64,000 nt of DNA from contig CAJTIX010000004.1 of the NCBI GenBank assembly GCA_910576795.1, positions 647 to 64,646 of the forward strand. The letters are read 5' to 3'. Numbering within the stretch: position 1 is the first letter of the stretch; each line of letters begins with the position of its first letter. The notes under the pieces were generated by a model that made no database searches, had not been told where the DNA came from, and was given only the letters and a program-made list of their open reading frames with translations. A program made the translations under genes and the position numbers. Shown piece by piece: positions 3,940 to 41,905 of the stretch. The stretch comes from an uncultured Bacilli bacterium (lineage in GTDB: Bacteria > Bacillota_I > Bacilli_A > RF39 > UBA660).

Positions 3940-4001
3940 TTAAATCACCTATTATTATTGTATCATGTTTTCGTTCACAAAAAAAGAGTCTTGCTTGACT
4001 C

Positions 4002-4612: not shown

Positions 4613-4760
4613 CTCCTTCTTGCGTAACACAAGAGACTATTCGCAAGTGAATAGGGTGTTTACTTTAATATTTTCGCTCTGCAGCTAGAGTTACACAATA
4701 ACCCAAATGGTAATAAACACGTTATCCGCTTCAAATAGAGCTGCTCAAGTTCAATACGCA
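4613..4760 (-). promoter_or_regulatory. rpsD 5' leader/promoter region, a possible S4 autoregulatory leader.
   Basis: The GC-richer segment ~4620-4760 is unusual in AT-rich DNA and lies directly upstream of rpsD. In Bacillus, S4 autoregulates through its leader mRNA. Confidence 0.3.
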
Positions 4761-4855
4761 GTTACAATTATATTATGTTTTTCCTTGTAAGTCAATACCA
4801 AACGCTCTATAAAAAGTTCAAAATTGGTTAAATTTACAAAAAAAGTGTAAAAAAA

Positions 4856-4874
4856 TGTCGAAATGTGGTAGAAT
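4856..4874 (+). promoter_or_regulatory. ezrA promoter. It has an extended -10 (TGgTAGAAT) with a Spo0A-box-like TGTCGAA overlapping the spacer.
   Basis: Sequence aaaaaTGTCGAAatgTGgTAGAATgat lies ~25 nt upstream of the ezrA start. Confidence 0.35.
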
Positions 4875-4897
4875 GATAATAGTATTATGATAGCGAG

Positions 4898-6631
4898 GTG
4901 ATATTTTTGGATACCATTGTTCTTATGATGATTACATTTGCAGTTGTCGCCTTTATTGCAATTTTAGTCATTTTGTTGATCATTCAAAAACGAAAAAGTC
5001 ATGTGATTAAAAAACAATTAGAACATTTGGAAGTCGAGAAAAATAAAATCGATAGTGCCCCTATTATTCCAGAACTTTCGAAAGTAGAATCTTACCTAAA
5101 AAATGAAAAATTAGAAGCGATGTATAACAATTGGACAGAACGGCTGGATGCGATTCGTAGCAATCAAATTCCAAAGATTACAGATATGTTATTAGAAGCG
5201 GATTATTCATTATCACAACAAGATTATAAAAGCACACTTTATAAGATTGCAAAATTAGAAATGGAAATTTATAAAGTAAAAACCAATTCTGACTTTTTAT
5301 TAAATGAAATCAAAGAGATTACGAGTAGTGAAGAGAGAAATCGTGCAATCATTACCAATTTGAAATCGATTTACCGGGATTTGTATCAAAAATATAGCAG
5401 TGGAAAAGATGGCTATGGTGAGATTGCAAAACCAATGGATTTACAATTTGAAAATATAGCCAAACGATTTGAAAATTTTGAAACAGCTATGGAAAACAAT
5501 GAGTTTACAGAAGTAACCAATATTATTAAATCGATTGATGAAATGTTAAAACATATGTCGGTAGTTGTAGAAGAAATACCAAGCATTATATTACTTTCAA
5601 CCAATATTTTACCAAAGAAGATGAAAGAGGCAGTGGAAGAACATAATCAGATGACCCAAGAAGGTTTTCCACTAGATTATCTGAATGTAGAATATAATAT
5701 AAAAGAGGCCAATAAAAAAATAAGCGATATCATGGATCGTGCGAAGGTTTTAAATTTAGAGGATAGTTTATTTGAACTTAAGGTACTATCTGACTATTTT
5801 GATTCTTTATTTACGGATTTGGAAAAAGAAAAAGTCAATCGATCTGAATATGAAGAAAGCAATAAAGTATTTAGCCGTAAACTGACGAAAATGAATCAAT
5901 TGATGGAGGATATATTTGCGCAAATCGATGATATTCGTAATTTGTACAATTTGTCAGATGATGATGTAAAGGTATTAAGTGATGTCAAAGAAGCATTACA
6001 AGGTTTAAATGGGGATTATAAAGTATTATTAGATCATACAGGGAATAATACATTTGCCTACTCAAAACTCACAAAAGAAATAGAGGGGCTCACAATCAAA
6101 TTATCTGCTTTAGAAGAAAATGTGGATAACATTTTAGATTCTATTGGCAGTATGAAAGAGGACGAAGTGAGAGCAAGACAACAATTAGAAGAAGTAAAAT
6201 TGATATTAAAAGAATCCAAAACAAAAATACGAGAATACAATTTGCCAGTGATTCCACAAAATTATTTTGTAGAACTTAATGAAGCACAAGTTGCAATCAA
6301 AGAAATTGTAAAAGAATTAGAGAAAAAACCAATTACCATTAGTGTTTTGAATACAAGAGTAGATACTGCAAGAGATTTGGTTTTAAAATTATACAATACA
6401 ACCAAAGAAATGATGAAAACAGCGATGTTTGCCGAAATGGCAATTGTATATGGAAATCGTTATCGCAGTACAACAGAAGAATTGGATAAATTCTTGACCT
6501 ATGCAGAAAGATTGTTCTATAAAGGGGAATATCAAAAATCGCTTGAGATTACAATTAATTCTTTGAATAAAGTAGAACATGGCATTTATGACAAATTACT
6601 TGGATTATATGCAGAAGGAGAAAAAAATTAG
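4898..6631 (+). CDS. ezrA: Septation ring formation regulator EzrA.
   Basis: It has a single N-terminal TM helix followed by ~540 aa of coiled-coil at ~570 aa total. It is divergent from rpsD as in Bacillus. The start could be TTG at 4907. Confidence 0.75.
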   Translation: MIFLDTIVLMMITFAVVAFIAILVILLIIQKRKSHVIKKQLEHLEVEKNKIDSAPIIPELSKVESYLKNEKLEAMYNNWTERLDAIRSNQIPKITDMLLEADYSLSQQDYKSTLYKIAKLEMEIYKVKTNSDFLLNEIKEITSSEERNRAIITNLKSIYRDLYQKYSSGKDGYGEIAKPMDLQFENIAKRFENFETAMENNEFTEVTNIIKSIDEMLKHMSVVVEEIPSIILLSTNILPKKMKEAVEEHNQMTQEGFPLDYLNVEYNIKEANKKISDIMDRAKVLNLEDSLFELKVLSDYFDSLFTDLEKEKVNRSEYEESNKVFSRKLTKMNQLMEDIFAQIDDIRNLYNLSDDDVKVLSDVKEALQGLNGDYKVLLDHTGNNTFAYSKLTKEIEGLTIKLSALEENVDNILDSIGSMKEDEVRARQQLEEVKLILKESKTKIREYNLPVIPQNYFVELNEAQVAIKEIVKELEKKPITISVLNTRVDTARDLVLKLYNTTKEMMKTAMFAEMAIVYGNRYRSTTEELDKFLTYAERLFYKGEYQKSLEITINSLNKVEHGIYDKLLGLYAEGEKN

Positions 6632-6763
6632 GTTTTCTTCTTTTTTCTTTTATGATCGGGAATGAAAACAACTATTTTACATAAGATAAATTGGAAGTAT
6701 CAAAAAACATTTGCAAATTTTAATAAGAATGATATAATTGATATATAATAAGGTGGTGTTCAA

Positions 6764-7246
6764 ATGAACGAAAATAAAGATCAGTTTGGTTTAGATAGTA
6801 TTAAACCTTTAGAACCAGTAGCTCCTATTCCAGAAGTAGAACAACCTTCTACCGTATATGAAACAACAGATTTTAATCCACAACCAATTGTAGAAGAACC
6901 TAGTACACAGTATGCATTTACTACAGAAGCTCCAGTAATAGATCCTGTGGTTCCAGTTACACCAGAACCAGTATCTTATACGGAAGAAGTACCTACAGTG
7001 GAGAATGATTATACATCATCCTATACGGAGATGCCTATAGAACCAGAAGTACCAACTGTGGATACTGTAAATGAACATCCAGATGCGAAAATTTCTTTGC
7101 ACAAAGATACTGAAACAGAAATAGCAGTACGTTCTAATCTTCCAGAAGAAAAAATGGATAAGAGTACTATGTGGATGTTAATATGGATATTTGTAGGGAT
7201 GTTGATTGTTATTATCGCATTACCATATTTATTTGAGTTATTTTAA
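6764..7246 (+). CDS. Hypothetical tail-anchored membrane protein with an acidic Pro/Glu/Thr-rich disordered N-terminus and a C-terminal TM helix.
   Basis: The composition is visible in the translation, the C-terminus is hydrophobic, and an AAGGTGG RBS is present. Confidence 0.5.
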   Translation: MNENKDQFGLDSIKPLEPVAPIPEVEQPSTVYETTDFNPQPIVEEPSTQYAFTTEAPVIDPVVPVTPEPVSYTEEVPTVENDYTSSYTEMPIEPEVPTVDTVNEHPDAKISLHKDTETEIAVRSNLPEEKMDKSTMWMLIWIFVGMLIVIIALPYLFELF

Positions 7247-7257
7247 AAAATCTACGT

Positions 7258-7572
7258 TTAGTAGATTTTTTCGTTTACAATCGAAAGTTCAATGATTCTT
7301 TCTATGGAGTCATCATTTTCTGCTACATTTTTATGTAATTGATGACATTTTTCACATTGATATATAATTTTATAAGTATTTTTAAATTTTTCAATACCAA
7401 TGGGTTTGAATAAACCTTTACAAGTATGCATGCGATCTCCTGGATTGATATCTACGTGTTTGGAATATAAACAATATGGACAATGATCTCGTGCTGTATA
7501 GTTGGATTTGGGGACGATTTTTCCGCAATGTTCACAAGTAAAAGATTCGTTACGCATGGTAAATTGTTTCAT
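7258..7572 (-). CDS. RNHCP-domain zinc-ribbon protein.
   Basis: It contains the C-x2-C ... RDHCPYC ... C-x2-C motifs. An AGGTGA RBS precedes the MKQF start. Confidence 0.6.
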   Translation of the reverse strand: MKQFTMRNESFTCEHCGKIVPKSNYTARDHCPYCLYSKHVDINPGDRMHTCKGLFKPIGIEKFKNTYKIIYQCEKCHQLHKNVAENDDSIERIIELSIVNEKIY

Positions 7573-7657
7573 TGGAATCACCTAATGCTATTGTATCAAT
7601 TTTCATATTTCAAATCAATTCAAAATGTGTTAAAATATATGGTGGATGTGAGAGACT

Positions 7658-26436: not shown

Positions 26437-29289
26437 ATGGAGATGATTGCCTTGAAACCAGTTCTACTTTGTATATTAGATGGTGTTGGTATGCGAAAAG
26501 AAACTTACGGAAATGCCTTTGCACAAGCGAAAACACCTCATTTTGATCATTTATGGAAAAAGTATCCACATAGTTTTTTAGAGGCAAGTGGTACTTTTGT
26601 GGGCCTTCCAGAAGGGCAAATGGGCAATAGTGAAGTAGGACACTTAAATATTGGCGCAGGTAGAGTGGTTTACCAACCATTGCAATTGATCACTCAATCT
26701 ATTAAAGATAAAACGTTTTTTGAAAATGAAAAGCTGTTAGAAATCATTCGTCATGTAAAAGAAAATCATTCTCGGTTGCAAGTATTTGGCTTACTCAGTG
26801 ATGGTGGAATTCACTCTCATATAGACCATTTGATGGCAATCATTGATCTGTGTCAAAAAGAAAATATGCATGATGTTTATTTTCATATATTTACAGATGG
26901 TAGAGATACTCTAACCAATGTCGCACTTACTTATTTGGATCAGCTAAATGAAAAAATCAAAGAAACTGGAATTGGTAAAATCGCAACGATTACTGGTAGA
27001 TATTATGCGATGGATCGTGACAATCGTTATGAGCGTATTCAAAAAGCATATGATGCTTGTGTAAAAGGAATTGGCGAAAAATTTGAAACTTATCAAGAGG
27101 CGATTCAACATAATTATGAAAAAGGAATTACAGATGAATTTATCGAACCTGCTATACTAGATGGCAATGGTTGTGTCAAAAAAGGAGATGGTTTGCTTGT
27201 ATTCAATTACAGACCAGACCGTTTACGTGAACTTTTTTCGGCATTCACGAATCCTAAATTCAAAGGATTTAAAAGAAAAAAACTTGCGAATATAAAATTG
27301 GTTACCATGATGCCTGTCAGTGATGAAGTCATATCTGAACCGGCTTTTACGAATGAAAAATTAGATAATACGCTAGGAGAATATGTAAGTAAACAGGGAT
27401 TCAAACAATTACGCATTGCCGAAACAGAAAAATATGCACACGTAACTTATTTTTTTGATGGTGGTGAAGAAAAAGAACTTGGAAGTTGTGACCGTATTTT
27501 AATTCCATCTCCTAAAGTCGCAACATATGATTTATCTCCTAGTATGAGCGCAAATGAAATCACAGATACATTACTTGCGAAATTAGATGAAGAACGTTAT
27601 GACTTAATTGTTCTTAATTTTGCAAATGGAGATATGTTAGGACATACTGGAAATATGGAAGCCACCATCCAAAGTTTGGAAATTGTAGATACTTGTTTGG
27701 GGAAATTGTACCAAAAAATAAAAGAAAAAAATGGTGTACTTGTCGTAACAGCAGATCATGGAAATTGTGAAATAATGCTAGATGAAAATCACAACAAAGT
27801 GACTGCTCATACTACCAGTTTGGTTCCTTTTATTGTAACCAAATCGGATATTCGTTTACAGGATGGGAAACTTTCTGATATCGCACCAACAGTACTGTCT
27901 TTATTGGGACTTAGCATTCCAGCAGAAATGACAGGGAACAGTTTATTACAGGAACCTAAGAAGAAATTGGGCTTTCGTTTCTGGTTTATTTTGTTGTCAT
28001 GTGTATTTTTAATCGGTCTTGTTTTGAACTATGGATATCGTTTTTATCATTTTTACCATTTAGACCACCAAGCAGGGAATGCACAAACAAGTACATTACA
28101 TGATACTATTTTACATAATTCTCCTTTGGTTACCAGTGGAGATGGGCTTTATTTTGATCAAGATAAATATGTATTTAAAGGTATGGTCGAAACAAATTAT
28201 GTATATTATTCTAATCGTTATTTTCGTATCGTACGTGTGAATACAGATGGCTCAATTGTTTTGATTTCAGATGATATTGTAACTTCCATGGTATGGAATT
28301 ATAAAGATAGTGACTATAGCAATTCCTATATCCGTAGTTGGTTAAATAAGGGTGAAGAAGAACATACAGGCATTTTCTATCATAGTCTAGAAAATCCAGA
28401 TGCTTATATTATGGAGAGTTCTTATTGTGTCGATGCGGTAGATGGGGAAAATCTCACTTGTGAGAATACAGTGACCGATCAAGTGGGACTACTTAGCATT
28501 ACCGAATATAAAGATGCCCTTGCCCATCATAGTTATTTAAATATCGGTAAATACTGGTGGACAAGTAATCCTTCAATAGACGGACAAGTATGGTATGTAT
28601 TCAGTAAAGGTGGAATTCATTCTAAATCCAATATGAATGATGCCTATTATGCATATGGAGTACGTCCCGTCATTACCCTGAAACCAGAAGTTCATTTTGT
28701 AAGCGGAAATGGTAGTAAAGAGGATCCATATCGAATTACTGTTCCAAGCCAGCAACTCAGTATTGGAAGTTATGTAACATGGAACGATAGTATATGGAAG
28801 GTACTTGATATTACGGATCAAGACATTCGATTGATGAGAAATGAAGTACTCACGATTGATTCCAAAACAGTATCTCGCATTTTTTCCAACCGTTCGAATC
28901 GCTATGACCCAAATGATGTAGGTTCTTTAGCGTATTATCTCAACCATAATTATCTGCAGTCACTATCCAATTCTTCTTTACTCGTAGATGCTTTATGGTA
29001 TAATGGAACTTATGGAGATTCTTACAATTATCAAAATGTATATGGAAGTGAAGTACAAGCAAAAGTAGGACTTGTAGCTATTGGAAATCTTTATGGAGAT
29101 ACGGATCAATCTTTTGTTACGATGACAGGAATGCATGATGATTTACTTTACTTTGTTTCAGAACAAGGAATGTTATCTACTGCCGATATTGAAACAGAAT
29201 TTTCTGTAAAACCAGTTGTTGCGATTTCGAAATCAGTACAAATTTTGAGTGGTAATGGTAGTAAAGAGGATCCATTTGTGATAGGTTAG
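26437..29289 (+). CDS. gpmI: 2,3-bisphosphoglycerate-independent phosphoglycerate mutase (aa 1-505) fused in frame to a TM helix plus a ~440-aa extracellular domain with two SGNGSKEDP[YF] repeats.
   Basis: The GpmI motifs are ILDGVG ... NSEVGHLN ... TADHGN. There is no stop after ...MTGNSLLQE. The ORF continues PKKKLGFRFWFILLSCVFLIGLV (TM) and then a domain paralogous to the C-terminus of the 20658 protein. Confidence 0.8.
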   Translation: MEMIALKPVLLCILDGVGMRKETYGNAFAQAKTPHFDHLWKKYPHSFLEASGTFVGLPEGQMGNSEVGHLNIGAGRVVYQPLQLITQSIKDKTFFENEKLLEIIRHVKENHSRLQVFGLLSDGGIHSHIDHLMAIIDLCQKENMHDVYFHIFTDGRDTLTNVALTYLDQLNEKIKETGIGKIATITGRYYAMDRDNRYERIQKAYDACVKGIGEKFETYQEAIQHNYEKGITDEFIEPAILDGNGCVKKGDGLLVFNYRPDRLRELFSAFTNPKFKGFKRKKLANIKLVTMMPVSDEVISEPAFTNEKLDNTLGEYVSKQGFKQLRIAETEKYAHVTYFFDGGEEKELGSCDRILIPSPKVATYDLSPSMSANEITDTLLAKLDEERYDLIVLNFANGDMLGHTGNMEATIQSLEIVDTCLGKLYQKIKEKNGVLVVTADHGNCEIMLDENHNKVTAHTTSLVPFIVTKSDIRLQDGKLSDIAPTVLSLLGLSIPAEMTGNSLLQEPKKKLGFRFWFILLSCVFLIGLVLNYGYRFYHFYHLDHQAGNAQTSTLHDTILHNSPLVTSGDGLYFDQDKYVFKGMVETNYVYYSNRYFRIVRVNTDGSIVLISDDIVTSMVWNYKDSDYSNSYIRSWLNKGEEEHTGIFYHSLENPDAYIMESSYCVDAVDGENLTCENTVTDQVGLLSITEYKDALAHHSYLNIGKYWWTSNPSIDGQVWYVFSKGGIHSKSNMNDAYYAYGVRPVITLKPEVHFVSGNGSKEDPYRITVPSQQLSIGSYVTWNDSIWKVLDITDQDIRLMRNEVLTIDSKTVSRIFSNRSNRYDPNDVGSLAYYLNHNYLQSLSNSSLLVDALWYNGTYGDSYNYQNVYGSEVQAKVGLVAIGNLYGDTDQSFVTMTGMHDDLLYFVSEQGMLSTADIETEFSVKPVVAISKSVQILSGNGSKEDPFVIG

Positions 29290-31454: not shown

Positions 31455-31599
31455 AAGAAAAAACGATTCATAGAATAATCTTTGAGTCGTTTTTAAATTG
31501 TTTCAATACGATTGTATTCTAAAAGAATATTCCCCAAAATCTAAAAAAATGTTTTTTTGGGGAATAAAATACGATATAATATAAATACAAGGAGAACTT

Positions 31600-31929
31600 G
31601 TGAAAATAAAATTAGATGATGTAATTGATGTATTGGAATTTATTAATGATGGTATAGATTCAAGTGCTTATTATAATGATAAAACAAATGAATTTATTTA
31701 TATTGATGAATATTCAGATATGAATGGTGATGAAAAAGACAATGTTTATGATACTTGCATAGGTCTTCCAACAAAATATTACATTAATGAATATGAAATG
31801 ATGGAAGAATTTATAGAAGCGATAGAAGATACTAGATTATATAATCAATTACAAATAGCAGTTAGTGGTAAAGGTGCTTTTAGAAGATTTAAAGATACTT
31901 GTATAAATTTTGATATCGCACATGATTGA
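31600..31929 (+). CDS. Small acidic hypothetical protein (109 aa).
   Basis: It is an ORF with an AAGGAGAA RBS and is the first gene of the accessory block. Confidence 0.4.
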   Translation: MKIKLDDVIDVLEFINDGIDSSAYYNDKTNEFIYIDEYSDMNGDEKDNVYDTCIGLPTKYYINEYEMMEEFIEAIEDTRLYNQLQIAVSGKGAFRRFKDTCINFDIAHD

Positions 31930-32015
31930 TATAAGTTTAGAGATGATAAATATAAAGAAATCGCCATAGATTGGTGTAATAAAAATAATATTGAATTTGT
32001 AAAGGAGGTTAAAAA

Positions 32016-32615
32016 ATGAATGAAGTATTAATTTTTAGAATTGGAATAGAAGGGTTAGAAAATAAAATTTGGAGAGAAATTGAAATTCCTAGTAGAAGAA
32101 CTGTTGCAGATTTTGCATATACAATTCTTGCATCATTTAATTCTCTTGCATATCATCTATATGATATAACTTACAAAAATAAGGTATACGATTGTTGGAT
32201 TTGTATTGATGATGATCATAGAGATATTGAATTGGTGAATGCTAATATTACGAAATTAAGCGATTTAAAATTAAAGAAAAAAGATACTATGGAAATGGAA
32301 TATGACACAGGATCAACAACTACATTTCATATTACTTATATAGGTTCAAGAAAATTAAAAAATGATAGAGAACAAGTGTTATATCCACTTGTAACAGCTG
32401 GTGAAGGATTAGGAATGCTTGATGATATGTGTGATTTTGATTTAAAGGACATTGTTGAAGATACGGATCAATTAGGTTATTCCAATCATTATTTTACTCC
32501 CGGATATGAAACAACAAAAAAATATGACTATAGAAAGTATAATATCAAAAAAGATAACAAAGAATTAAAAGGAAAAATATTAGCCATCAAAAATGGGTAT
32601 GAAGTAGGTGATTAA
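32016..32615 (+). CDS. Plasmid pRiA4b ORF-3-like (PF07929-like) domain protein.
   Basis: KIWREIEIPSRRTVADFAYTILASFNSLAYHLYDI fits the IWR ... IP ... L ... FGW ... HL pattern. An AAGGAGG RBS is present. Confidence 0.5.
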   Translation: MNEVLIFRIGIEGLENKIWREIEIPSRRTVADFAYTILASFNSLAYHLYDITYKNKVYDCWICIDDDHRDIELVNANITKLSDLKLKKKDTMEMEYDTGSTTTFHITYIGSRKLKNDREQVLYPLVTAGEGLGMLDDMCDFDLKDIVEDTDQLGYSNHYFTPGYETTKKYDYRKYNIKKDNKELKGKILAIKNGYEVGD

Positions 32616-32946
32616 TTTGGATGAACTAACTAAATTACTATTGAAAGATAAAACACCAATTTGCATTCAGAGGATTTAATTGTTAAAGAGTTGTTTGCTA
32701 AAGAAAATTAATCTATTGCCTTTTTATTTTTGTTTTGGTATATAATATTTATGCAGGGAAAAAGTATTTACACTTTTGCATGGGCACTGTCTGAATTGAT
32801 AGGGCCCTATTTTTTCTTTTATGGAGTATTGTTTAATAGAGATTTTATATCTTCTGCTTTTTCAATCAATATGTTTTTTATAAATTTTTCGCAAATAGTC
32901 AAAATTTTTCAAGTTTCGTGATATACTGAATACAAGAGGTGTAATT

Positions 32947-33261
32947 ATGGAAGAATTAACTGAAAAAATAAGAAAATTCGCAGAAGAAAGAGATTGGTTA
33001 CAATTTAATACTCCAGAAAATCTTGCTAAATCAATTGCTATTGAAGCTGCGGAATTACTAGAATGCTTTCAATGGAATAATAATTATAATAAGGATGAAT
33101 TAAAATATGAAATAGCAGATGTAATGAACTACTGCATATTATTATGCTCACAAATAGGTGTCGATCCAAAAAAAATAATTCTTGAAAAAATGAATATATC
33201 TGCTAAAAAATATCCAATAGAAAAGGCAAAAGGGGTTAGCACAAAGTATACTAAATTGTAG
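32947..33261 (+). CDS. MazG-like nucleotide pyrophosphohydrolase, a small all-alpha NTP-PPase.
   Basis: FAEERDW ... ENLAKSIAIEAAELLECFQW ... EIADVMNY is the MazG/NTP-PPase helix pair with the EExxE motif. Confidence 0.7.
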   Translation: MEELTEKIRKFAEERDWLQFNTPENLAKSIAIEAAELLECFQWNNNYNKDELKYEIADVMNYCILLCSQIGVDPKKIILEKMNISAKKYPIEKAKGVSTKYTKL

Positions 33262-33280
33262 TTTTAAGGAGATGTTTATC

Positions 33281-35056
33281 ATGGAATTAGCCAATCCTAT
33301 TATTAAAAAAATAGAAGATAGTGAGTTGGGATTAAATAAATTTGAATTAGAAATAAATGCTTGTAAAAATAAAAATGAGAAAAAAGTAATAAAAGATTAT
33401 CCAACTGTATATATTCATACATGGAAAAGAAAAGAGGTCTATGAGGTATATATAGGGGAATCCAATGATATATTTGAGAGAACAAGAGAGCATTATAGAA
33501 ATAGAAAAGTTCAAGGAAAATGGCAGAAAAATTTAAGATTAAAGGATACTGATTTATATGTGATAGGACATGAACATTTTAATAAATCATTAACACTTGA
33601 TGTTGAAAACAGATTAATGCATTATTTGACTGGTGTTGAAAATGTTAGAAAGGTCCATAATGCGAGGGGAAATCCCCAAAATCAATACTACACATCCAAT
33701 GAATTTGATCAAATATTTCATAAAATATGGTTAAAATTAGGAGGATATAATAACGAACTATTTCCTTTAGAGAGTAAAATAATTGATTCTGCAATCTTCA
33801 AGGCTTCCCCATTACATAAATTGACAAAGAAACAACAAGCTGTAAAAGAATTAATAGTAAGTAAAGTGATAGAATCATCATTGACTAATAAGACTGGCCA
33901 ATTAATATTTGTAGAAGGAGAGGCTGGTACTGGTAAAACGGTATTAAATAGCAGTACTTTTTATGAATTATGTTGTATGAGTGAAACATCTGTTGAAAAT
34001 GATATTAACCCTATTACTAAACCATTAAAATGTTGCCTAATTGTTAACCATAAAGAACAGAGAAGTGTATACCGACAAATATTCAAGAAATTATGTATTG
34101 AAAATGGAGATTTAGTTTATTCACCAACTACTTTTATTCATAAATATGATGTTAATCATCCTATAGATGTAGTATTTGTAGATGAAGCACATTTATTGTT
34201 AACGCAAGGCAAACAATCATACACGGGAAAAAACCAATTACAAGATATTTTAAATAGAGCAAAGGTTACAATTATAATGTTTGATACGAATCAAATTTTA
34301 ACTGCTGAACAATATTGGGAATATAAACTTTTAGAAAAGTATAGGAAAATGGCACAAGATAACAATAATCACATTGTTCTTACAGAACAATTAAGAATTC
34401 ATGCGAACGATAAAGTGATTAAATGGATTGATGACTTTACGAAAAAAGGGATTGTTAATAAATTACCGAAAAAACTAGGAAATTATGATATTGAAATATT
34501 TGATACGCCAAAACTTTTGGAGAATAAAATAAAAGAAAAAGCAAAAAATAAAAATTCAAAATTATCTAGGCTAGTTGCAACATATGATTGGAAGTATAGT
34601 TCTTCACATACAAATAATGGAAAACCTTGGGAGGTAACTATAGATAAGTGGCATAGGTCATGGAATTATGAAGTTGCAAAGAACTTTAGTAGAAACGAAA
34701 ACAAAGGAATTAAAGATAAATCTTGGGCTGAACAAGATCATACAATTAATGAGGTTGGTTCAATATTTACAATTCAAGGTTTTGACTTAAATTATGTTGG
34801 AGTAATTATAGGACCATCGGTAAAATATCGAAATAACAAAATCATCTATTGCCCTGAATTTAGTTGTCATGAAAAAGCTGTCCAAAATAGGAAATTATCC
34901 GATGGTACCTATAAAAATTTTGGAGAACTATTAATAAGAAATCAATTGAGAATATTAATGACAAGGGGTGTTAATGGTTTATATATTTATGCATGTGATG
35001 AAGGATTAAGAGAACATTTAAAAAAATGTGCTGAAAAAAGGTATGTATGTGAATAA
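33281..35056 (+). CDS. GIY-YIG-like N-terminal domain fused to a DUF2075/Schlafen-like P-loop ATPase (helicase-like). It is a candidate defense protein.
   Basis: VYIHTWKRKEVYEVYIGESNDIFERTREH is GIY-YIG-like. The Walker A is VEGEAGTGKTV and the Walker B is VVFVDEAHLL. The C-terminal MTRGVNGLYIY is typical of DUF2075. It lies 19 nt downstream of the MazG-like stop with its own AAGGAG RBS. Confidence 0.65.
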   Translation: MELANPIIKKIEDSELGLNKFELEINACKNKNEKKVIKDYPTVYIHTWKRKEVYEVYIGESNDIFERTREHYRNRKVQGKWQKNLRLKDTDLYVIGHEHFNKSLTLDVENRLMHYLTGVENVRKVHNARGNPQNQYYTSNEFDQIFHKIWLKLGGYNNELFPLESKIIDSAIFKASPLHKLTKKQQAVKELIVSKVIESSLTNKTGQLIFVEGEAGTGKTVLNSSTFYELCCMSETSVENDINPITKPLKCCLIVNHKEQRSVYRQIFKKLCIENGDLVYSPTTFIHKYDVNHPIDVVFVDEAHLLLTQGKQSYTGKNQLQDILNRAKVTIIMFDTNQILTAEQYWEYKLLEKYRKMAQDNNNHIVLTEQLRIHANDKVIKWIDDFTKKGIVNKLPKKLGNYDIEIFDTPKLLENKIKEKAKNKNSKLSRLVATYDWKYSSSHTNNGKPWEVTIDKWHRSWNYEVAKNFSRNENKGIKDKSWAEQDHTINEVGSIFTIQGFDLNYVGVIIGPSVKYRNNKIIYCPEFSCHEKAVQNRKLSDGTYKNFGELLIRNQLRILMTRGVNGLYIYACDEGLREHLKKCAEKRYVCE

Positions 35057-35074
35057 ATTTATTATAAACAAGCA

Positions 35075-35104
35075 AAAGATACATTTTAATGAGTATCTTT
35101 TTTG
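35075..35104 (+). terminator. Intrinsic terminator after the DUF2075 gene.
   Basis: aaagatacattttaatgagtatcttttttgg. Confidence 0.65.
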
Positions 35105-35224
35105 GTTTCTGTAGAATTTGGCATAATATCATGGACAAAATTGGTATTTAGTTTTCTTGTTAAGATTTAAAATATATTAAAGAATAAGTGTTGTTGCATT
35201 TATTTGTAATTGAATTGGTAAAAT

Positions 35225-35253
35225 TTGACAACAATAAGATTTGACTTTATAAT
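35225..35253 (+). promoter_or_regulatory. Consensus sigma-A promoter of the jet operon: TTGACA-17-TATAAT.
   Basis: TTGACAacaataagatttgacttTATAAT lies 25 nt upstream of the jetA RBS. Confidence 0.7.
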
Positions 35254-35277
35254 AGCGCATAAAAAAGGGGTGAAATA

Positions 35278-36636
35278 ATGTTTAATTTGTTTGATTTGAT
35301 ACCTATGAATTTTTTTAATATATTTGTAGGAGCCAATAGAGTTATTTATGCAGATATCTTATTTATTCTTTTTGCAAAAATGAAATCTATGAATAGTTAT
35401 ACAATGTATAAAGAAGAATTTATTGACATTATTGAAAACTATTTAATTAGTAACGCGATTGAAATAGAGGAATTAGATATAGAAAGTAAGAATCCTAGAA
35501 CTACGGCTACTGCGATTTTTAGAAAATTAAAAGAACTAGGCTGGATCGACGTAGAATATGATGCTGTGCAACAACAATTAGTTAATTTTGAGGACTATGC
35601 AATTTCTGTTTTAAATAATTTATTGGAACTTAGCAAAGATAGTACATTTGAATTAAGTAGTAAGGTATATAGTATGTATATGAATTTAAAAAATATAGAT
35701 CTTGAACGTGGATATTTGACAGTGTATACAGTTTATAAACAAGCACGCGATTTGATTGATAAATTGAAAAGTTTAAATTCGAATATTCGTAAATATATTA
35801 AGAAAATGATTCAATTAGATCAAAAAGATGAAGTACAATATTTGAATTGTGTTTTAAATCAACTATTTAGCGATTATAAAGAGAAGATTATCGATAAAGC
35901 TTATTACTATATGAAAACAAATGATAATCCCAGAAAGTATAAACAGGCGATTGAAAGCATATGTGAAAGGTTAAAATATGATGAGGCAAGCAGTAGGGAA
36001 CTGATAAATCAAATTATGACAAAAGATGAACTAGATGCAGATGAAGCCCTTAATAAATTAGAAGAAATGCTTAAATTTATAGAAGGCTCTTTTGATGAAG
36101 CAATTGATTTGATGCAGATAATTGATGAAAAAAATGCCAAATATATCAATGTTGCAATTGATAAAATCAAGATTATTTTAAATCATAATACTGATATTGA
36201 AGGACACTTATTACATATTTTGAAAAATTTTGATTTACTACAACCTGAAGATATAAATTCTCACTTTTTTGATAGAAGAAATATTATGCACAGTTCATTA
36301 TACACAATAAAAATGAGAAAAAAAGAGATTGAACCACAAGAATTAAAACAAAAAAATATCAATTATATGAAGGATCATTCTTTATCAATCTTGAAAGAAA
36401 ATGTAAAATACTGCAAGCGAAATATCCAAAAATATGTAATGCAAAAATTGGAAAAAAAAGATTCATTGACAATAGAAGATTTTAACATTTCATTAAAAGA
36501 AGAATTTATTAAATTATTGCTTATTATGATTTATGAAAGTGATAAAAGTTCTAATTATAGAGTGATATGGGATAAAGAAGAAATGAAAGCATATGGCTAT
36601 ACGACAAGACAATTTATAATAGAAAGGAAAAAATAA
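35278..36636 (+). CDS. jetA: Wadjet JetA / MksF-like (kleisin-like, DUF3375-like) subunit.
   Basis: It is 452 aa, the first gene of a 4-gene operon of 452/212/1058/395 aa with overlapping stops and starts. Its position and size match JetA. Confidence 0.7.
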   Translation: MFNLFDLIPMNFFNIFVGANRVIYADILFILFAKMKSMNSYTMYKEEFIDIIENYLISNAIEIEELDIESKNPRTTATAIFRKLKELGWIDVEYDAVQQQLVNFEDYAISVLNNLLELSKDSTFELSSKVYSMYMNLKNIDLERGYLTVYTVYKQARDLIDKLKSLNSNIRKYIKKMIQLDQKDEVQYLNCVLNQLFSDYKEKIIDKAYYYMKTNDNPRKYKQAIESICERLKYDEASSRELINQIMTKDELDADEALNKLEEMLKFIEGSFDEAIDLMQIIDEKNAKYINVAIDKIKIILNHNTDIEGHLLHILKNFDLLQPEDINSHFFDRRNIMHSSLYTIKMRKKEIEPQELKQKNINYMKDHSLSILKENVKYCKRNIQKYVMQKLEKKDSLTIEDFNISLKEEFIKLLLIMIYESDKSSNYRVIWDKEEMKAYGYTTRQFIIERKK

Positions 36637-36637
36637 T

Positions 36638-37276
36638 ATGGAAGAAATTTTAGAAGCATTTATGCATGATTATAAATTATTAAGCGAGAAAGAAAAAGAA
36701 AAATTTGCCGAAATTGTAAACAAATTACTAAATATAAATTATATGACAAGTCATAAAGCGGAGGACACATTAAACTATCAATTTATTGAAAATCATATAG
36801 ATTGCTTTAAAAATTACTTTAATATTGTGCATATAGAATTGTGTTTATATAAACAAACTAAAACAATTGTTTTGAAGACAGAATATATGAACAAATTGAA
36901 TTTGAATAAACTGCAAAGTATTATTTTGTTGATTATAAGGCTTTTGTATTCACAGAAATTGAAAGAAATTAGTATATTAAATGATGTAATTATAAACGTT
37001 GGCGAAATTCGAAATAAATATGAAAATATAGGATTTGTAGGAGAAGAAAAATTAAATGTGGTAAAATTAAAAGACTGTCTTCAAATTTTTAAAAAATACA
37101 ATTTAGTGAATTATAGAGGACAAAATATTTACGAGGATGACTTTGCAATTACTGTATATCCAACCATACAGTATGCAGTTTCTATTGATAATATTGAAGT
37201 GTTAGTTCAAAAAATTAATTGTTATAAAGAAAAGAGTGACCAAAATGAAGAAATTAACGAAGATCAAATTGATTAA
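36638..37276 (+). CDS. jetB: Wadjet JetB / MksE-like subunit.
   Basis: It is 212 aa and sits between the jetA and jetC homologues. Confidence 0.7.
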   Translation: MEEILEAFMHDYKLLSEKEKEKFAEIVNKLLNINYMTSHKAEDTLNYQFIENHIDCFKNYFNIVHIELCLYKQTKTIVLKTEYMNKLNLNKLQSIILLIIRLLYSQKLKEISILNDVIINVGEIRNKYENIGFVGEEKLNVVKLKDCLQIFKKYNLVNYRGQNIYEDDFAITVYPTIQYAVSIDNIEVLVQKINCYKEKSDQNEEINEDQID

Positions 37277-40200
37277 TTGGTATACCTTTGAAAATGAAAC
37301 AATTGACTTATATGGGAATTGTCTAATTTCGGGAGCGAATGGAAGTGGCAAATCTACTTTATTAGATGCCATACAATTTATATTAACCGCTGGTGGAACA
37401 CAGTTTAATAAAGCAGCAGATGAGAAAAGTAAGAGAAATCTAGAAAGCTATGTAAGAGGAAAAATAGGAACTGCCAATAAAGAGTATTTAAGAAATGGTG
37501 ATGTAACATCTTATGTTGCTTTACAATTCCATGATTATGAAACGAAAACAAAAGATATAATTGGAGCTTGTATTGAAGTTTCATCTGGATTTAAACCTAA
37601 AAGGATATTTTTTAGAATTTCAAGTATGGACATAAACGATGAAATCTTTATCGAAAAGAATAAACCGAAAACAATGGTAGAATTTAGAAGGGTACAATCT
37701 ATTGAAATATTTGAAACAAAAGGTGAAATCAAACAAATGATACGAGCTATTTTGGGTGTTTGCAGTGATAAATACTTCGAATTAATTCCAAGAGCCTTGG
37801 CATTTAAACCAATTGATGAAAATCTAGATAATTTTGTCAATGATGTATTACTTTCTGAAAAGGAAATTGATTTACATAGTCTTCAACAAAATATTCAAAA
37901 TCTAACGGAACTACAGGAAATTATTAAGAATGAAGAGAATAAGATAAAAGAATTGGAAAAATTAGAAAAAGATTATGAAAGTTATAAGAATTGTTTATCG
38001 CAAAAGAAATTTTACGATTGGGCTAAACTACAATTTCAGATATTAAGTAGACAAGAGATAATTCAAAAATTAGAAGCTATGATTCATAATTTAGAAGCTC
38101 AACATACTGATAAAACAAAAAATATTGAATTAGAAGAAATATCCCTTGCTTCTTTAGAACAAGATATTGATAATTATAAAAAATCCAATGAAAGCAATTC
38201 TGATTTTAACATACAGGATCAACTCCAGAAAGATATTTTGAAATTAAAGGAGCAACATGAGAATTTCAAAAAGGAATATAAAATGTATCAAAATTATTTT
38301 GAGAAAGAAATAAAAATTGCTCAAAATATAAAGTGTCATATTTTAGAAAAGGTAGAACTAAATCAAATTGAAGCATTAAATAAATGTCTTTATGAATATA
38401 AAAAATATGTAGAAAGTAAGAAAAGGGAATTTCAAACGAATTACCATCAATATGAGGATAGAGAAAAGGAAGTTTCTGATAAAATTAATATTTGTGATCA
38501 AAAATTAGAAAGGTTACATAAAAAGCAAATGCCATATGAACCCCATATTATTTGTTTACAAGATGAAATTAAAGTATACTTGAGTGAAAAATATAATATT
38601 AATGTTGAAGTGAGACCATTATGTGAATATATTGACATTACAGATGAAAAGTGGCGAGATGCAATAGAGGGGTACTTGAATACACAACGTTTTGATTTAA
38701 TTGTGGAACCACAATATTTTGATGATGCTTTAAATGTATATGAATCTATCAAAAAAGAAAAGAAAATTTATGGTGTTGGTTTAGTAAATGTTAAAAAATT
38801 AGATTTAGAGGATATAATAGAAAATACATTGGCTACAAAAATTAAATCGAATTATAATTATGCCTATTTATATGCAATTAAAATATTAAATAAGGTCGTA
38901 TGTTGTGAAGATATTAATATGCTAAAAAGTTATAATAATGCCATTACACCCACCTGTATGGCTTATAGAAATCATGTCGCAAGACAGATCAATCCAAATG
39001 TTTATCAGGATTATTACATTGGTACGCAAGCGTATGAAAAGCAATTATCAAAATATACAAAAGTCCAAAAAGAATATAATACATTATTACAGAATATACA
39101 ATCTACAATGAAAAATTACAATAATCAATTATTACAAATACAGGAAAGTAGAATAGATGAGTTATTACGAGATATCACCGTATTGAAACGATATAATAGA
39201 GTGAACGAAGAAATGAATCAAAAACAAGATGACTTAAATAAGATGCAAACAGATGGTCTAGTGTATGATATGATGCAAAAATTAAATGAATTGTATGCAA
39301 AATATGAAACTAAAAAGAAAGAAATAAATCAAATAAAAGATGAAAAAAGAAAACTAGAACTCCAGATTGATGAAAATAATGAAAAGTTAGACATGTTGTA
39401 TAAAGAATTAACTACTATCAAAGACAGTGTTACAGAAAAAGAAGTAGACTATGAAGAAAAAATCAAAAAAATATCATATTCACAAATTGATAATTTGTAT
39501 TCTAAAAATGAAATCATATTAATGCAACTTCAAACTTCTATTGAAAGTTTACAAAGTAAATATAATGAGCAATATGAATATGATGAAATTCCTTCTATTG
39601 ACACTGTCCAAAAATATATTACTACGTTATATCAAATTAGAGAAAAAGACATTGTCAAATATAAAGCAGATAGTGTAAATTTTCAAACGCAGTGTCGAAA
39701 CAGTTTTGAAGAAGATTTTATTAGTCATTTAAGAAATAATATTATTAGTGCACAAGGAGAACTCAAAGAATTAAATAGAGCACTAAAAAATAAAAGATTT
39801 GGTCAAGATGGTGAAAAATATGAATTTGTGTTTGAACAGAGTGATGATCCTGAATTAGCAAAATATTATGAGATTATTATGAGTGGAAAAGATTATACAG
39901 TGCATAGTTTATTTGATGAAACTTTAACTCAGGATCAAAAAGAACAAATGGAAGAATTATTTAGAAAACTTACGACTCCATCTGAATATGTATCTACTTG
40001 TCATTATACGGATTATAGAAAATATATGTCTTATGACATAAGGGTAACAAAAAATAATGGGGATTCTTATAAGCTTTCTCATGTTGTAAGAGAAAAAAGT
40101 GGGGGAGAAACACAAACGCCGTTTTACTTCATTATTGCATCCTCTTTTGAGCAACTTTTAAAGTCGGGAATACGTAAAGGGTCTATTGGATGTGTCGTAT

Positions 40201-40412
40201 TGTTGGATGAGGCTTTCAATCGAATGGATGAATCTAGAATTGAAGCAATGATGCACTTTTATAATGAGTTAAATATTCAGCTTTTAATAGCTGTTCCTCC
40301 ACAACAGCTTCCAAGCATTGCCCCATATGTCAATACCAATTTGTTGATTGAAACAAAAGATTATGATTCGTTTGTGATCCCTTATAGAATAGAGGATTTA
40401 ATGGATGAATAA
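37245..40412 (+). CDS. jetC: Wadjet JetC / MksB-like SMC-family ATPase.
   Basis: The N-terminus LINWYTFENETIDL ... ISGANGSGKSTLLDAIQFIL is the Walker A. A long coiled-coil middle follows. The C-terminal signature/Walker B/D-loop is VVLLDEAFNRMDESR. Confidence 0.85.
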   Translation: MKKLTKIKLINWYTFENETIDLYGNCLISGANGSGKSTLLDAIQFILTAGGTQFNKAADEKSKRNLESYVRGKIGTANKEYLRNGDVTSYVALQFHDYETKTKDIIGACIEVSSGFKPKRIFFRISSMDINDEIFIEKNKPKTMVEFRRVQSIEIFETKGEIKQMIRAILGVCSDKYFELIPRALAFKPIDENLDNFVNDVLLSEKEIDLHSLQQNIQNLTELQEIIKNEENKIKELEKLEKDYESYKNCLSQKKFYDWAKLQFQILSRQEIIQKLEAMIHNLEAQHTDKTKNIELEEISLASLEQDIDNYKKSNESNSDFNIQDQLQKDILKLKEQHENFKKEYKMYQNYFEKEIKIAQNIKCHILEKVELNQIEALNKCLYEYKKYVESKKREFQTNYHQYEDREKEVSDKINICDQKLERLHKKQMPYEPHIICLQDEIKVYLSEKYNINVEVRPLCEYIDITDEKWRDAIEGYLNTQRFDLIVEPQYFDDALNVYESIKKEKKIYGVGLVNVKKLDLEDIIENTLATKIKSNYNYAYLYAIKILNKVVCCEDINMLKSYNNAITPTCMAYRNHVARQINPNVYQDYYIGTQAYEKQLSKYTKVQKEYNTLLQNIQSTMKNYNNQLLQIQESRIDELLRDITVLKRYNRVNEEMNQKQDDLNKMQTDGLVYDMMQKLNELYAKYETKKKEINQIKDEKRKLELQIDENNEKLDMLYKELTTIKDSVTEKEVDYEEKIKKISYSQIDNLYSKNEIILMQLQTSIESLQSKYNEQYEYDEIPSIDTVQKYITTLYQIREKDIVKYKADSVNFQTQCRNSFEEDFISHLRNNIISAQGELKELNRALKNKRFGQDGEKYEFVFEQSDDPELAKYYEIIMSGKDYTVHSLFDETLTQDQKEQMEELFRKLTTPSEYVSTCHYTDYRKYMSYDIRVTKNNGDSYKLSHVVREKSGGETQTPFYFIIASSFEQLLKSGIRKGSIGCVVLLDEAFNRMDESRIEAMMHFYNELNIQLLIAVPPQQLPSIAPYVNTNLLIETKDYDSFVIPYRIEDLMDE

Positions 40413-41592
40413 ATATACCGATTTAATTTTGAAGAAATTATTAAAAAAATATGAGAATAGTAAAATTTCTAAAGGAGAAACAAAACGAACTGTAAATATA
40501 TTTATCAAATTTGATTTAAAAGAAATGAAAGATTATGTAAGTGAGGATAGTTACAAATATGAATCTGAAATCCTAGAAGCAGTTGATTATTTAAAAAATA
40601 AACATTATATTTGTGTAGAAGAGAAAAATCATCGTATTCAAAGAGTTATTTTAAATATAGAGTGGGTAGATTCCGTTTACGCAGAATTGCATTTAGAAAA
40701 TCCTATAAAGAAAAATATATCCTACATGAGACAATTAAACCAGCATATAGATAAAGGCCAATTAGTGCATAATTTTTGTTGTAAAATGATGGATAAATTA
40801 GAACATTTTGAATCTGTTAAATCTTATTTTAATTCGGAAAATGAATTAAGAGATATATTGATTACCTTGGAGTATTTAGAAAATCAAAAAAATGAAATTA
40901 GTGAAAGAAATTTTAGTGCAAAATACTTGAATGACTCTAAAAAATTAGAACATATGGAGGGAAAAATATTAAAGATAGTAAAAGAATGTAGTATGGAAGA
41001 TTTTACAGATGATTCATATTTGGAACATTATAATGTGTATAAAAATCCTACGCAGGTTTATATACGTGGATATGGTATTTTTAAAATTTTTAATCAAATT
41101 GTTGATTTAAGTAAAATGGGAAACGAATTGGTTTTATCTAGTAATCAATTAAAGGATTTTTCTGTAATAGAGTTGCCCATATCTAAAGTAGTTACAGTTG
41201 AAAATCTTACAACGTATTATAATATACCTTACAAAGATAGTTGTGTTGTATATTTAGGTGGATTTCATAATACAATTCGTAAAGAATTATTGTGTAAGAT
41301 TTATCAATTTAATCAAAATTTGCAATTTTATCACTGTGGTGATATTGATGCAGGTGGATTTTACATTCTAAATCATTTAACACAAGATACCAAGATTCCA
41401 TTTATACCTTATTTTATGGATATAGAAACATTAAAAACTTATAAAATGTATGCAAAAAAATTGTCAGATGAAGATAGAAAAAGATTAGCAGATTTAATGG
41501 AAATAAAAGATTTATATATATATTATGATATTTTTGAGTATATGTTATTACATAATATGAAATTAGAACAAGAAAATATTATATATAAATAA
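40405..41592 (+). CDS. jetD: Wadjet JetD / MksG-like Toprim (topo VI-A-like, DUF2220) nuclease subunit.
   Basis: VVTVENLTTYYN carries the Toprim Glu and YHCGDIDAGGFYIL carries the DxD. It overlaps the jetC stop. Confidence 0.8.
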   Translation: MNKYTDLILKKLLKKYENSKISKGETKRTVNIFIKFDLKEMKDYVSEDSYKYESEILEAVDYLKNKHYICVEEKNHRIQRVILNIEWVDSVYAELHLENPIKKNISYMRQLNQHIDKGQLVHNFCCKMMDKLEHFESVKSYFNSENELRDILITLEYLENQKNEISERNFSAKYLNDSKKLEHMEGKILKIVKECSMEDFTDDSYLEHYNVYKNPTQVYIRGYGIFKIFNQIVDLSKMGNELVLSSNQLKDFSVIELPISKVVTVENLTTYYNIPYKDSCVVYLGGFHNTIRKELLCKIYQFNQNLQFYHCGDIDAGGFYILNHLTQDTKIPFIPYFMDIETLKTYKMYAKKLSDEDRKRLADLMEIKDLYIYYDIFEYMLLHNMKLEQENIIYK

Positions 41593-41905
41593 CACGTTGT
41601 GCTAGTAAAAAGGAGAATAGAAAAACCATTCAAAATATGGTACTCTTAATTTGAAAAAATAATAATGAGACCTGAACAATATTTATTTGAAGCTTTAGAA
41701 GGAAATGAAACAGTAATAAAAGAGTATGTGAAAAACCAAGGTAAACAAGATGGGGAATATAAGCAATTTAGGCGACATCGCTATAAAAGATACCCCGCAC
41801 TCGTAGAGTGACAATCATCCTTTGGATGATTAAAGCTTGCTCCGGGGAGTTTCATTGTACCCAAATTGGGCAACTTACATATAATGACTTAGGAGGAGAT
41901 TATAT

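Follow-up and report, generated by a model that had tools for sequence, protein, structure and literature searches.

A Conserved Gene Pair of a MazG-like Pyrophosphatase and a GIY-YIG-DUF2075 Nuclease-Helicase as a Candidate Mobile Defense Module

A Two-gene Operon in an Uncultured Bacilli Bacterium

Two neighboring forward-strand genes in a stretch of 64,000 nucleotides (nt) from an uncultured Bacilli bacterium (contig CAJTIX010000004.1 of assembly GCA_910576795.1, the whole stretch being termed the window) encode a MazG-like nucleoside triphosphate (NTP) pyrophosphohydrolase of 104 amino acids (aa) and a much larger protein with an N-terminal GIY-YIG nuclease domain followed by a DUF2075 helicase core (Table 1). 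The pair is read here as a self-contained, horizontally mobile operon that on balance is most likely a module of defense against phages or other invading DNA. Nuclease-DUF2075 proteins, represented by Nhi and the Nhi-like protein, are proven single-gene phage defenses and relatives of the helicase domain of human Schlafen proteins. The window holds the version that is widespread in gut Bacillota, in which the head is GIY-YIG and a dedicated partner resembling a deoxycytidine triphosphate (dCTP) pyrophosphatase is, judged from its sequence, catalytically intact. If the pair is defensive, the cutting of nucleic acids and the control of the nucleotide pool would be joined in one compact operon.

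The Genes Are Retained as a Pair across Genomes

Relatives of the large protein occur in 347 stretches among 185,579 species genomes (one genome per species), and the best 80 loci were examined. A MazG-like gene is placed directly adjacent on the same strand in 74 of the 80, and of the 6 exceptions 2 are interrupted by contig ends and 4 are truly without MazG. The gene order varies: in 18 pairs, those of 17 loci and that of the window (as in Bacilli and Clostridiaceae-like genomes), the MazG-like gene comes first, and in 57 loci, for the most part from Lachnospiraceae, it follows the large gene. The gap between the paired genes is -4 to +44 nt in nearly all pairs, some of which overlap by 1-4 nt. 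The pairwise identities of both proteins co-vary with a correlation of r 0.71, a value reached by 0 of 999 permutations, and the partner also accompanies all 4 of the distant relatives in IMG/VR (27-41% identity). The first-pass annotation of this DNA, which had proposed the pair as a candidate two-gene defense module, allowed for the outcome that homologs of the two genes essentially never co-occur elsewhere; instead they are adjacent in most loci and their sequences co-vary. The proposal itself is supported by the adjacency, by the co-variation, and by the mobile, defense-rich context described below, with the function remaining a prediction.

The reverse search, starting from the pyrophosphatase, covered 80 metagenome loci in which a neighboring DUF2075 gene was called by tblastn. 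An adjacent DUF2075 gene on the same strand is found in 45 of the 80, with 15 loci too short to judge, and this count is an underestimate because one locus scored as negative (L143) has a DUF2075 protein by Pfam. About half of the DUF2075 partners found from this side are headed by GIY-YIG, with identities down to 24%. The others carry a head of ~260 aa that has a D...ExK motif, is PD-(D/E)xK-like, and has no Pfam match; a profile of this alternative head returned nothing meaningful from the PDB, and its PD-(D/E)xK assignment is made on the D...ExK motif only. The presence of both head types beside the same pyrophosphatase lineage indicates that the pyrophosphatase and the helicase are the constant elements of the arrangement and that the nuclease head is exchangeable. 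In four loci (L095, L100, L101, and L104, each at about 4001-6250) the MazG-like genes are the closest to that of the window, at 83-86% identity, while the partner DUF2075 proteins are only 27-31% identical and carry the alternative head, implying that pyrophosphatase and nuclease-helicase lineages have recently exchanged partners.

The Large Protein Combines a GIY-YIG Head with a Superfamily 1B Helicase

Residue numbers of the large protein follow the 594-aa open reading frame (ORF) that starts at ATG 33272. Residues 210-576 match the SLFN-g3_helicase/DUF2075 family (PF09848) in Pfam with an E value of 1.2e-88. The AlphaFold model of the protein has a predicted local distance difference test score (pLDDT) of 85.7 and a predicted template modeling score (pTM) of 0.83, and a Foldseek search of this model against the PDB returns RecD, RecD2, Dna2, SLFN11 (E 1.2e-7), Upf1, and Dda, proteins that a search of the PDB with the whole sequence does not retrieve, giving no match. 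Residues Y47, Y60-G62-E63, R70, G219-T223, D304/E305/H307, and M563/R565/G566/G569/Y571 are invariant in the relatives. The motifs that had been quoted from the sequence at first pass (VYIHTW, VYIGES, R70, Walker A GEAGTGKT, Walker B DEAH, and MTRGVNGLYIY) are all present and include these invariant core residues.

The GIY-YIG domain of the window matches PF01541 with 19.9 bits (E 9e-4), under the curated cut-off of 22.6. Across the family, PF01541 is matched at E <= 1 by every one of the 72 N-terminal domains scanned, those of the window protein and of 71 relatives, the best at 1.4e-8, and the catalytic set Y47, Y60, G62, R70, H74, E112, and N130 is invariant in the 72 sequences. The window residues align with Tyr-6, Tyr-17, Arg-27, and Glu-75 of I-TevI, which is also the best PDB match of a profile of the N-terminal domain family (E 0.012), T4 endonuclease II and UvrC being retrieved as well. 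An AlphaFold model of the domain (pLDDT 88.3) agrees with the GIY-YIG fold of a three-stranded sheet with flanking helices. Its top fold matches in BFVD are endonucleases of phages of the GIY-YIG/I-TevI-like type, with E values from 2e-3 to 0.2 and probabilities of up to 1.0, and Foldseek of the same model against the PDB gave nothing significant. The earlier claim of an N-terminal GIY-YIG nuclease is borne out by the invariant catalytic residues, the family-wide matches, and the fold, with the window copy taken alone falling below the Pfam cut-off. With GIY-YIG, Walker A, Walker B, and motif VI residues invariant, the nuclease-helicase looks catalytically intact.

The helicase domain is the same PF09848 domain that is found in the group 3 Schlafen proteins (SLFN5/11/13/14). 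Bacterial Schlafen defense proteins are defined by an RNase domain (PMC13056530), and no Pfam match to a Schlafen core (AlbA_2-type) RNase domain is present in the large protein, which has the group 3 helicase domain only. In the absence of an AlbA_2-type RNase core the window protein is not a Schlafen, and the description of it as Schlafen-like is correct for the helicase domain and wrong for the nuclease.

The Small Protein Is Related to DCTPP1

The product of the small gene matches PF12643 (MazG-like) with 66.1 bits compared with a cut-off of 27 (E 3.5e-18). Among proteins of solved structure it is closest to an archaeal pyrophosphatase (PDB code 4qgp, E 9e-19), followed by the dCTP pyrophosphatase DCTPP1/RS21-C6 of mouse and human (E 1.7e-14), with homology along its entire length in both cases, and the three have in common the substrate helix ERDW.QF..P.NL, an ExxE...ExxD metal site, and a C-terminal KYP...KY motif. 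The metal ligands of the window protein are E33-x2-E36 ... E55-x2-D58, and none of the four varies among 75 members of the family. The identification as a MazG-type NTP pyrophosphatase therefore stands through PF12643 and DCTPP1, but the metal motif given with it, EExxE, has to be read as ExxE...ExxD. The window protein has an asparagine at position 21, where 93% of the family have a histidine.

By its complete conserved metal site the small partner looks like an active DCTPP1-type pyrophosphohydrolase. DCTPP1-type enzymes are classical sanitizers of the nucleotide pool, and DCTPP1 prefers 5-modified dCTP. On the basis of this homology the substrate of the window protein is probably a 5-modified nucleotide of the dCTP type. 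DCTPP1 and 4qgp are stand-alone housekeeping proteins, whereas the window lineage is a dedicated neighbor of nuclease-helicases. No MazG-DUF2075 fusion is found among the 150 best of 5,234 MazG-like representatives, nearly all of which are 100-170 aa long. A 489-aa MazG-like hit (P0195) was considered as a fusion and rejected, as its helicase-like region is a different one that does not significantly resemble the window protein.

The Pair Lies in Variable, Mobile, and Defense-rich Surroundings

No further neighbor is conserved around the pair in the 80 loci. Within three genes on either side are found C5 methyltransferases, MADS, Cas3, Cas6, Dpd (DpdF), a DRT reverse transcriptase, AbiL, AbiEi, PsyrT, and NERD and HNH proteins. 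At least about 13-16% of the genes in this range match PADLOC models at E <= 1e-8, a rough lower bound that has no matched control; a recent review gives a share of about 1.5% of bacterial genes as anti-phage (PMC13434031). A type IV enzyme of the SauUSI-like PLD-helicase-DUF3427 kind is present in 10 of the 80 loci. An integrative element carries an abundant gut variant of the pair, with a C5 methyltransferase, an SNF2 helicase, and a MutH/Sau3AI-like nuclease next to it, and on Lactobacillaceae plasmids the pair adjoins type I restriction-modification or type IV-like genes. Some neighbors are housekeeping genes. The first-pass annotation had left room for the large protein being a housekeeping helicase without enrichment in defense islands, and the surroundings as found, variable, mobile, and rich in defense genes, do not have that character.

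Two further ideas about the surroundings were rejected. A phage origin does not agree with the rarity in phage datasets: IMG/VR, with its 2.9 million contigs, contains only 4 relatives, and 50,697 phage records gave 3 weak matches, so that the gene is not typically one of phages. A ~155-aa gene that recurs after the MazG-like gene was considered as a deoxycytidine monophosphate (dCMP) deaminase, which would complete a path from dCTP to dCMP to deoxyuridine monophosphate; it is a low molecular weight phosphotyrosine phosphatase (CxGNICRS; Pfam LMWPc) and a housekeeping flank. A TadA-like deaminase lies near the pair in one locus only (L047).

Relation to Known Systems

The best functional analogy for the window protein is Nhi (SERP2475) of Staphylococcus epidermidis, a stand-alone PD-(D/E)xK nuclease joined to a superfamily 1B (SF1B) helicase overlapping DUF2075, in which immunity needs both activities (10.1101/776245). 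The two proteins are alike in having an N-terminal nuclease and an SF1B helicase, in their Dda/Upf1/Dna2-like structure, in their horizontal spread, and in their location near defense genes. Nhi differs in its PD-(D/E)xK head and in being a single gene, whereas the head of the window protein is GIY-YIG and its pyrophosphatase partner is conserved. A toxic homolog of Nhi has also been reported (10.1101/776245). The Nhi-like protein (Bacillus cereus FSL H8-0482, SG141) is a single nuclease-DUF2075 polypeptide with validated anti-phage activity (10.1101/2022.05.11.491447), laid out like Nhi although unrelated to it in sequence, its head is PD-(D/E)XK (10.1101/2025.07.10.664194), and phages escape it by losing a DNA methylase (10.1101/2022.08.27.505566). 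No pyrophosphatase partner is described for SG141, and BLASTP of the window protein against the ~400 aa printed for it aligns the Walker A region only (58 aa, E 7e-4). PADLOC gives no Nhi-named match for the window protein, the presence of an Nhi model in that collection being unconfirmed.

The pairing itself has been listed before. Table S2 of Millman et al. 2022 contains a candidate termed "Pyrophosphatase," composed of a 98-aa pyrophosphatase and a 643-aa DUF2075 protein, that is neither named nor discussed in the text (10.1101/2022.05.11.491447). The pyrophosphatase of its SG192 representative is 40% identical to that of the window by BLASTP, with the same adjacency of MazG-like and DUF2075 genes. 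The SG192 DUF2075 protein has the ~260-aa PD-(D/E)xK-like head, being 52% identical to the alternative-headed partners described above and 26% identical to the window protein over the helicase part only. The pair of the window thus represents, with its GIY-YIG head, one variant of an arrangement that others had already spotted and tried a single time, without its being validated or given a name. The earlier statement that the pair is not a named system agrees with the absence of a name in that work, but the pairing had been put forward and tested there as a candidate. A literature search found no paper naming MazG together with DUF2075.

In several loci the MazG/DUF2075 pair has next to it a second pair of a nuclease-helicase and a small NTP pyrophosphohydrolase, which suggests that the two work on a common logic. 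A Nudix gene of ~135 aa is placed directly beside the SauUSI-like gene, in either order, in 6 of the 10 loci that carry the latter and also on a Lactobacillus plantarum plasmid, where the order is Nudix, SauUSI-like, MazG-like, DUF2075. This second pair differs in its PLD nuclease, its superfamily 2 helicase, its Nudix fold, and its modified-base reader DUF3427, a domain that the window protein does not have. SauUSI restricts DNA containing 5-methylcytosine (5mC) or 5-hydroxymethylcytosine (5hmC), and enzymes with DUF3427 have been found to adjoin DUF2075 NTPases, with GIY-YIG-DUF2075 fusions also on record (PMC6765204). That work on DUF3427 enzymes makes no mention of Nudix or MutT, and no wider literature search for a SauUSI-like/Nudix pairing was made.

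Proposed Function and Alternative Explanations

In the defense reading the large protein would be the effector. Its SF1B motor (RecD/Dda/Upf1-like) would load on foreign DNA and translocate with ATP, and the N-terminal GIY-YIG domain would nick or cut that DNA, following the principle of Nhi with another nuclease head. The small partner would hydrolyze non-canonical, probably 5-modified, dCTP-type nucleotides. In doing so it might deny the phage its modified building blocks, or it might stop modified nucleotides from degraded foreign DNA from re-entering host DNA and attracting modification-dependent nucleases.

The clearing of modified deoxynucleoside triphosphates (dNTPs) is the role favored for the pyrophosphatase, as a tentative preference at less than even odds. 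Modified cytosine is suggested as the common theme by the C5 methyltransferases, by the SauUSI-like enzymes, and by the escape of phages without their methylase from the Nhi-like protein, and the clearing role is favored because the SauUSI-like enzyme has a Nudix pyrophosphohydrolase of its own, forming a parallel pair. The same company of C5 methyltransferases and SauUSI-like enzymes leads to a testable idea on how modified nucleotides are handled during restriction. A broader and more speculative possibility is that small NTP pyrophosphohydrolases are a general and so far unrecognized arm of modification-aware immunity, the MazG-like enzyme serving the nuclease-DUF2075 proteins and Nudix the SauUSI-like enzymes. 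The nuclease-helicase would then destroy modified foreign DNA, and the pyrophosphatase would clear dNTPs of the 5mC, 5hmC, or uracil type, either starving the phage or preventing self-restriction.

Several observations weigh against a two-gene defense module. The four genomes noted above hold the large gene without MazG, plasmids of B. cereus carry a 33%-identical GIY-YIG-DUF2075 gene alone, and the occurrence of the large gene by itself in these genomes and plasmids indicates that the MazG-like partner is not indispensable. From the other side, 20 of the 65 evaluable MazG loci have no DUF2075 gene by tblastn. The enrichment among neighbors is given without a matched control, and the 80 loci are related, being mostly from Lachnospiraceae and Clostridia. 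Neither window protein is matched by a model in PADLOC v2 or NCBIfam. The published "Pyrophosphatase" construct from Bacillus firmus (SG192) gave no defense, and the one from Bacillus thuringiensis (SG193) failed to clone (10.1101/2022.05.11.491447). The window pair accounts for a loose end here, in that a large screen had taken up the pairing a single time, recorded it as negative or unclonable, and not returned to it. Because of this single negative test and of the stand-alone B. cereus genes, a role in defense is held to be probable and no more than that.

An arrangement in which the pyrophosphatase is itself the effector is considered unlikely. The nuclease-helicase would sense infection and the MazG-like enzyme would deplete dCTP/dNTPs to abort phage replication, resembling the dCTP-deaminase and dGTPase defenses or a predicted MazG-like variant of PUA-Cal-HAD systems. 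The complete conservation of the catalytic residues and the homology to a dCTP pyrophosphatase fit such a role, as does the prediction that in rare PUA-HAD systems a MazG-like domain takes the place of the effector that depletes dNTPs (10.64898/2026.01.15.699771). However, the large protein keeps a fully conserved nuclease site of its own, and proteins of the nuclease-DUF2075 type act alone in the case of Nhi and occur alone in B. cereus. The 104-aa enzyme also has no regulatory domain, and the best relatives searched for fusions (150 of 5,234) do not join it to DUF2075.

A housekeeping function is given a similarly low probability. The large protein would be a nuclease-helicase for repair or replication rescue, following the logic of UvrC or Dna2, and its partner a house-cleaning pyrophosphatase acting on damaged or non-canonical dNTPs. 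This would agree with the use of GIY-YIG and SF1B folds by UvrC, Dna2, and RecD, with the pool-sanitizing role of DCTPP1-type enzymes, with the negative result for the one tested relative (SG192), and with the presence of some housekeeping neighbors. It is difficult to reconcile with the patchy distribution (347 matching stretches in the 185,579 species genomes), with the lack of a fixed chromosomal position or neighbor, with the carriage of the pair by plasmids and integrative elements, and with its defense-rich neighborhoods and the variable low-GC island in which it is found here.

Doubtful to a greater degree is an addiction module of the toxin-antitoxin type, in which a toxic nuclease-helicase is neutralized by the small protein, with stabilization of the mobile elements that carry the pair as the chief outcome. 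A small gene closely coupled to a large one for a nuclease, whichever of the two comes first and in some cases with an overlap of 1-4 nt, is what such a module might look like, SG193 could not be cloned, a toxic Nhi homolog is on record (10.1101/776245), and the pair is found on plasmids and integrative elements. Against this, the four invariant metal-binding residues point to catalysis and not to mere binding, several genomes and plasmids have the large gene but not its small partner, and there is no DNA-binding or autoregulatory domain.

The Island in the Window and the Upstream Genes

That the pair is an accessory of the type I Wadjet system (jetABCD, an anti-plasmid system confirmed at 35278-41592) or part of a larger unit with PRiA4_ORF3 and UPF0158-like genes is suggested by its position directly upstream of jetABCD, by the pair in L025 and the stand-alone gene of a B. 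cereus megaplasmid, which both adjoin Wadjet, and by a UPF0158-like gene after the pair in L058, but across the 80 loci the pair is adjacent to Wadjet in 1 (L025), to PRiA4 in 0, and to a UPF0158-like gene in 1 (L058), the sister genome has the pair without any of them, and jetA has its own promoter, so that coupling to Wadjet is largely refuted by the co-occurrence counts and this explanation is essentially excluded. From the counts and the sister genome, the Wadjet, PRiA4, and UPF0158-like genes are neighbors and not parts of the module. The suggestion that the PRiA4_ORF3-like gene upstream is an associate of the pair is not upheld, whereas the independence of the pair from jetABCD, also suggested at first pass, is supported by the promoter, the counts, and the sister genome.

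The pair lies in a low-GC stretch with a G+C content of 0.23-0.28 compared with 0.33-0.37, within a variable island (window ~31455-41900) that is flanked by genes for a polysaccharide deacetylase and an amidase/LysM protein. In the sister genome (L175, 9086-21390) the pair is at the same site, Wadjet is replaced by a small integrative element with Viral_Rep, FtsK/SpoIIIE, and a large serine recombinase, and neither the UPF0158-like nor the PRiA4 gene is present. The island resembles a chromosomal hotspot of mobile and defense cargo.

Transcription Unit and Coordinates of the Features

Both ORFs are located where the first-pass annotation had put them, and the 19-nt gap given there holds with the start at ATG 33281, which yields 591 aa. 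This ATG is the likely start in view of the Shine-Dalgarno spacing and the N termini (MEL...) of homologs. The candidate promoter element of the pair is missed by the consensus promoter scan because its -35 region is poor; the same scan finds a perfect TTGACA-17-TATAAT promoter for jetA at 35225-35253. The hairpin after the pair has a calculated fold energy of -8.2 kcal/mol and a z score of -1.54, which is not significant alone, and the consensus terminator scan called no terminator after the pair. The claim that the pair has its own terminator is thus correct in that a hairpin and a T-run are present, but the structure is weak and not called by the scan.

Table 1. Features of the gene pair, given as positions of the 64,000-nt window, and SauUSI-like/Nudix pairs, given as positions of the loci named
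Feature	Position	Strand	Basis
Candidate extended -10 promoter element (TGaTATACT) of the pair	32919..32927	+	Predicted, read from the sequence; 20 nt 5' of the ribosome-binding site
Ribosome-binding site AAGAGGTG of the MazG-like gene	32934..32941	+	Sequence; 5 nt 5' of ATG 32947
MazG-like (DCTPP1-type) all-alpha NTP pyrophosphohydrolase, 104 aa	32947..33261	+	PF12643, PDB relatives, invariant metal ligands
Shine-Dalgarno AAGGAG of the nuclease-helicase gene	33266..33271	+	Sequence; 9 nt before ATG 33281, 0 nt before ATG 33272
GIY-YIG nuclease + DUF2075/SF1B helicase protein, 591 aa (594 aa from 33272)	33281..35056	+	ORF, Pfam, AlphaFold
GIY-YIG nuclease domain, residues ~44-130	33401..33661	+	Y47, Y60-G62-E63, R70, H74, E112, N130
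SF1B helicase core = DUF2075/SLFN-g3_helicase, residues 210-576	33899..34999	+	Walker A G216-T223, Walker B D304-E305-A306-H307, motif VI R565
Weak terminator-like hairpin closing the transcription unit of the pair	35074..35103	+	9-bp A/U-rich stem, then T-run
SauUSI-like + Nudix pairs	L034 6114-9521; L060 14181-17626; L075 13586-16998; L067 6853-9925; L073 4422-7855; L056 18285-21683; L177 2348-5645		

Additional Observations on Neighboring Genes

Two genes recur directly after the MazG-like gene, one encoding a ~100-aa protein with no family match (6 of the 80 loci) and one a protein of ~380 aa whose C terminus bears an HNH_4 domain (9 of the 80). They are found in L039 (12079-13544), L044 (12082-13532), L060 (12093-13543), L034 (4619-6084), and L075 (12084-13526), often between the pair and the SauUSI-like gene, and could be a further restriction-type module, e.g. 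a modified-base reader fused to HNH. In L045 a 123-aa gene (2375-2746) lies between the DUF2075 and MazG-like genes and appears glyoxalase/VOC-like by eye only. The discussion in the Nhi paper mentions an extra domain of a metalloenzyme family (citing Armstrong 2000), taken here as VOC, with its tie to the L045 gene unverified.

A DUF2075 nuclease-helicase adjoins Wadjet in three cases, namely the window, L025, and the B. cereus plasmid NZ_CP139215 (L178). In the last of these the stand-alone GIY-YIG-DUF2075 gene (4357-7656) has no MazG gene within 6 kb and is placed back to back with jetD. Stand-alone genes of this type occur on ~0.5-Mb plasmids of the Bacillus cereus group (65 Bacillus records).

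The UPF0158-like and PRiA4_ORF3 (E 7e-18) genes form a tight pair on the forward strand just 5' of the operon (window 31600-32615) and may be another small accessory module. A homolog of the UPF0158-like gene (36% identity) follows the MazG-like gene in L058 (2187-2609). In the window (31600-32015, forward strand) the UPF0158-like ORF is 109 aa long and ends at TGA 31927-31929, and the frame goes on in register beyond it (HD*YKFRDDKYKEIAIDWCNKNNIEF). The TGA aligns exactly with a conserved tryptophan of the L058 homolog (QWYKFRDEAY), and either a recent TGG to TGA nonsense mutation removing the last ~29 aa or read-through would account for it; the standard genetic code is favored in view of the long ORFs elsewhere in the window.

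Further upstream, a forward-strand gene (window 26437-29289) encodes a 950-aa protein in which a complete cofactor-independent phosphoglycerate mutase (Metalloenzyme and iPGM_N) is fused to a hydrophobic stretch and an extended DUF6273 region. This architecture, which is unusual for a glycolytic enzyme, is kept in the sister genome with 83% identity.

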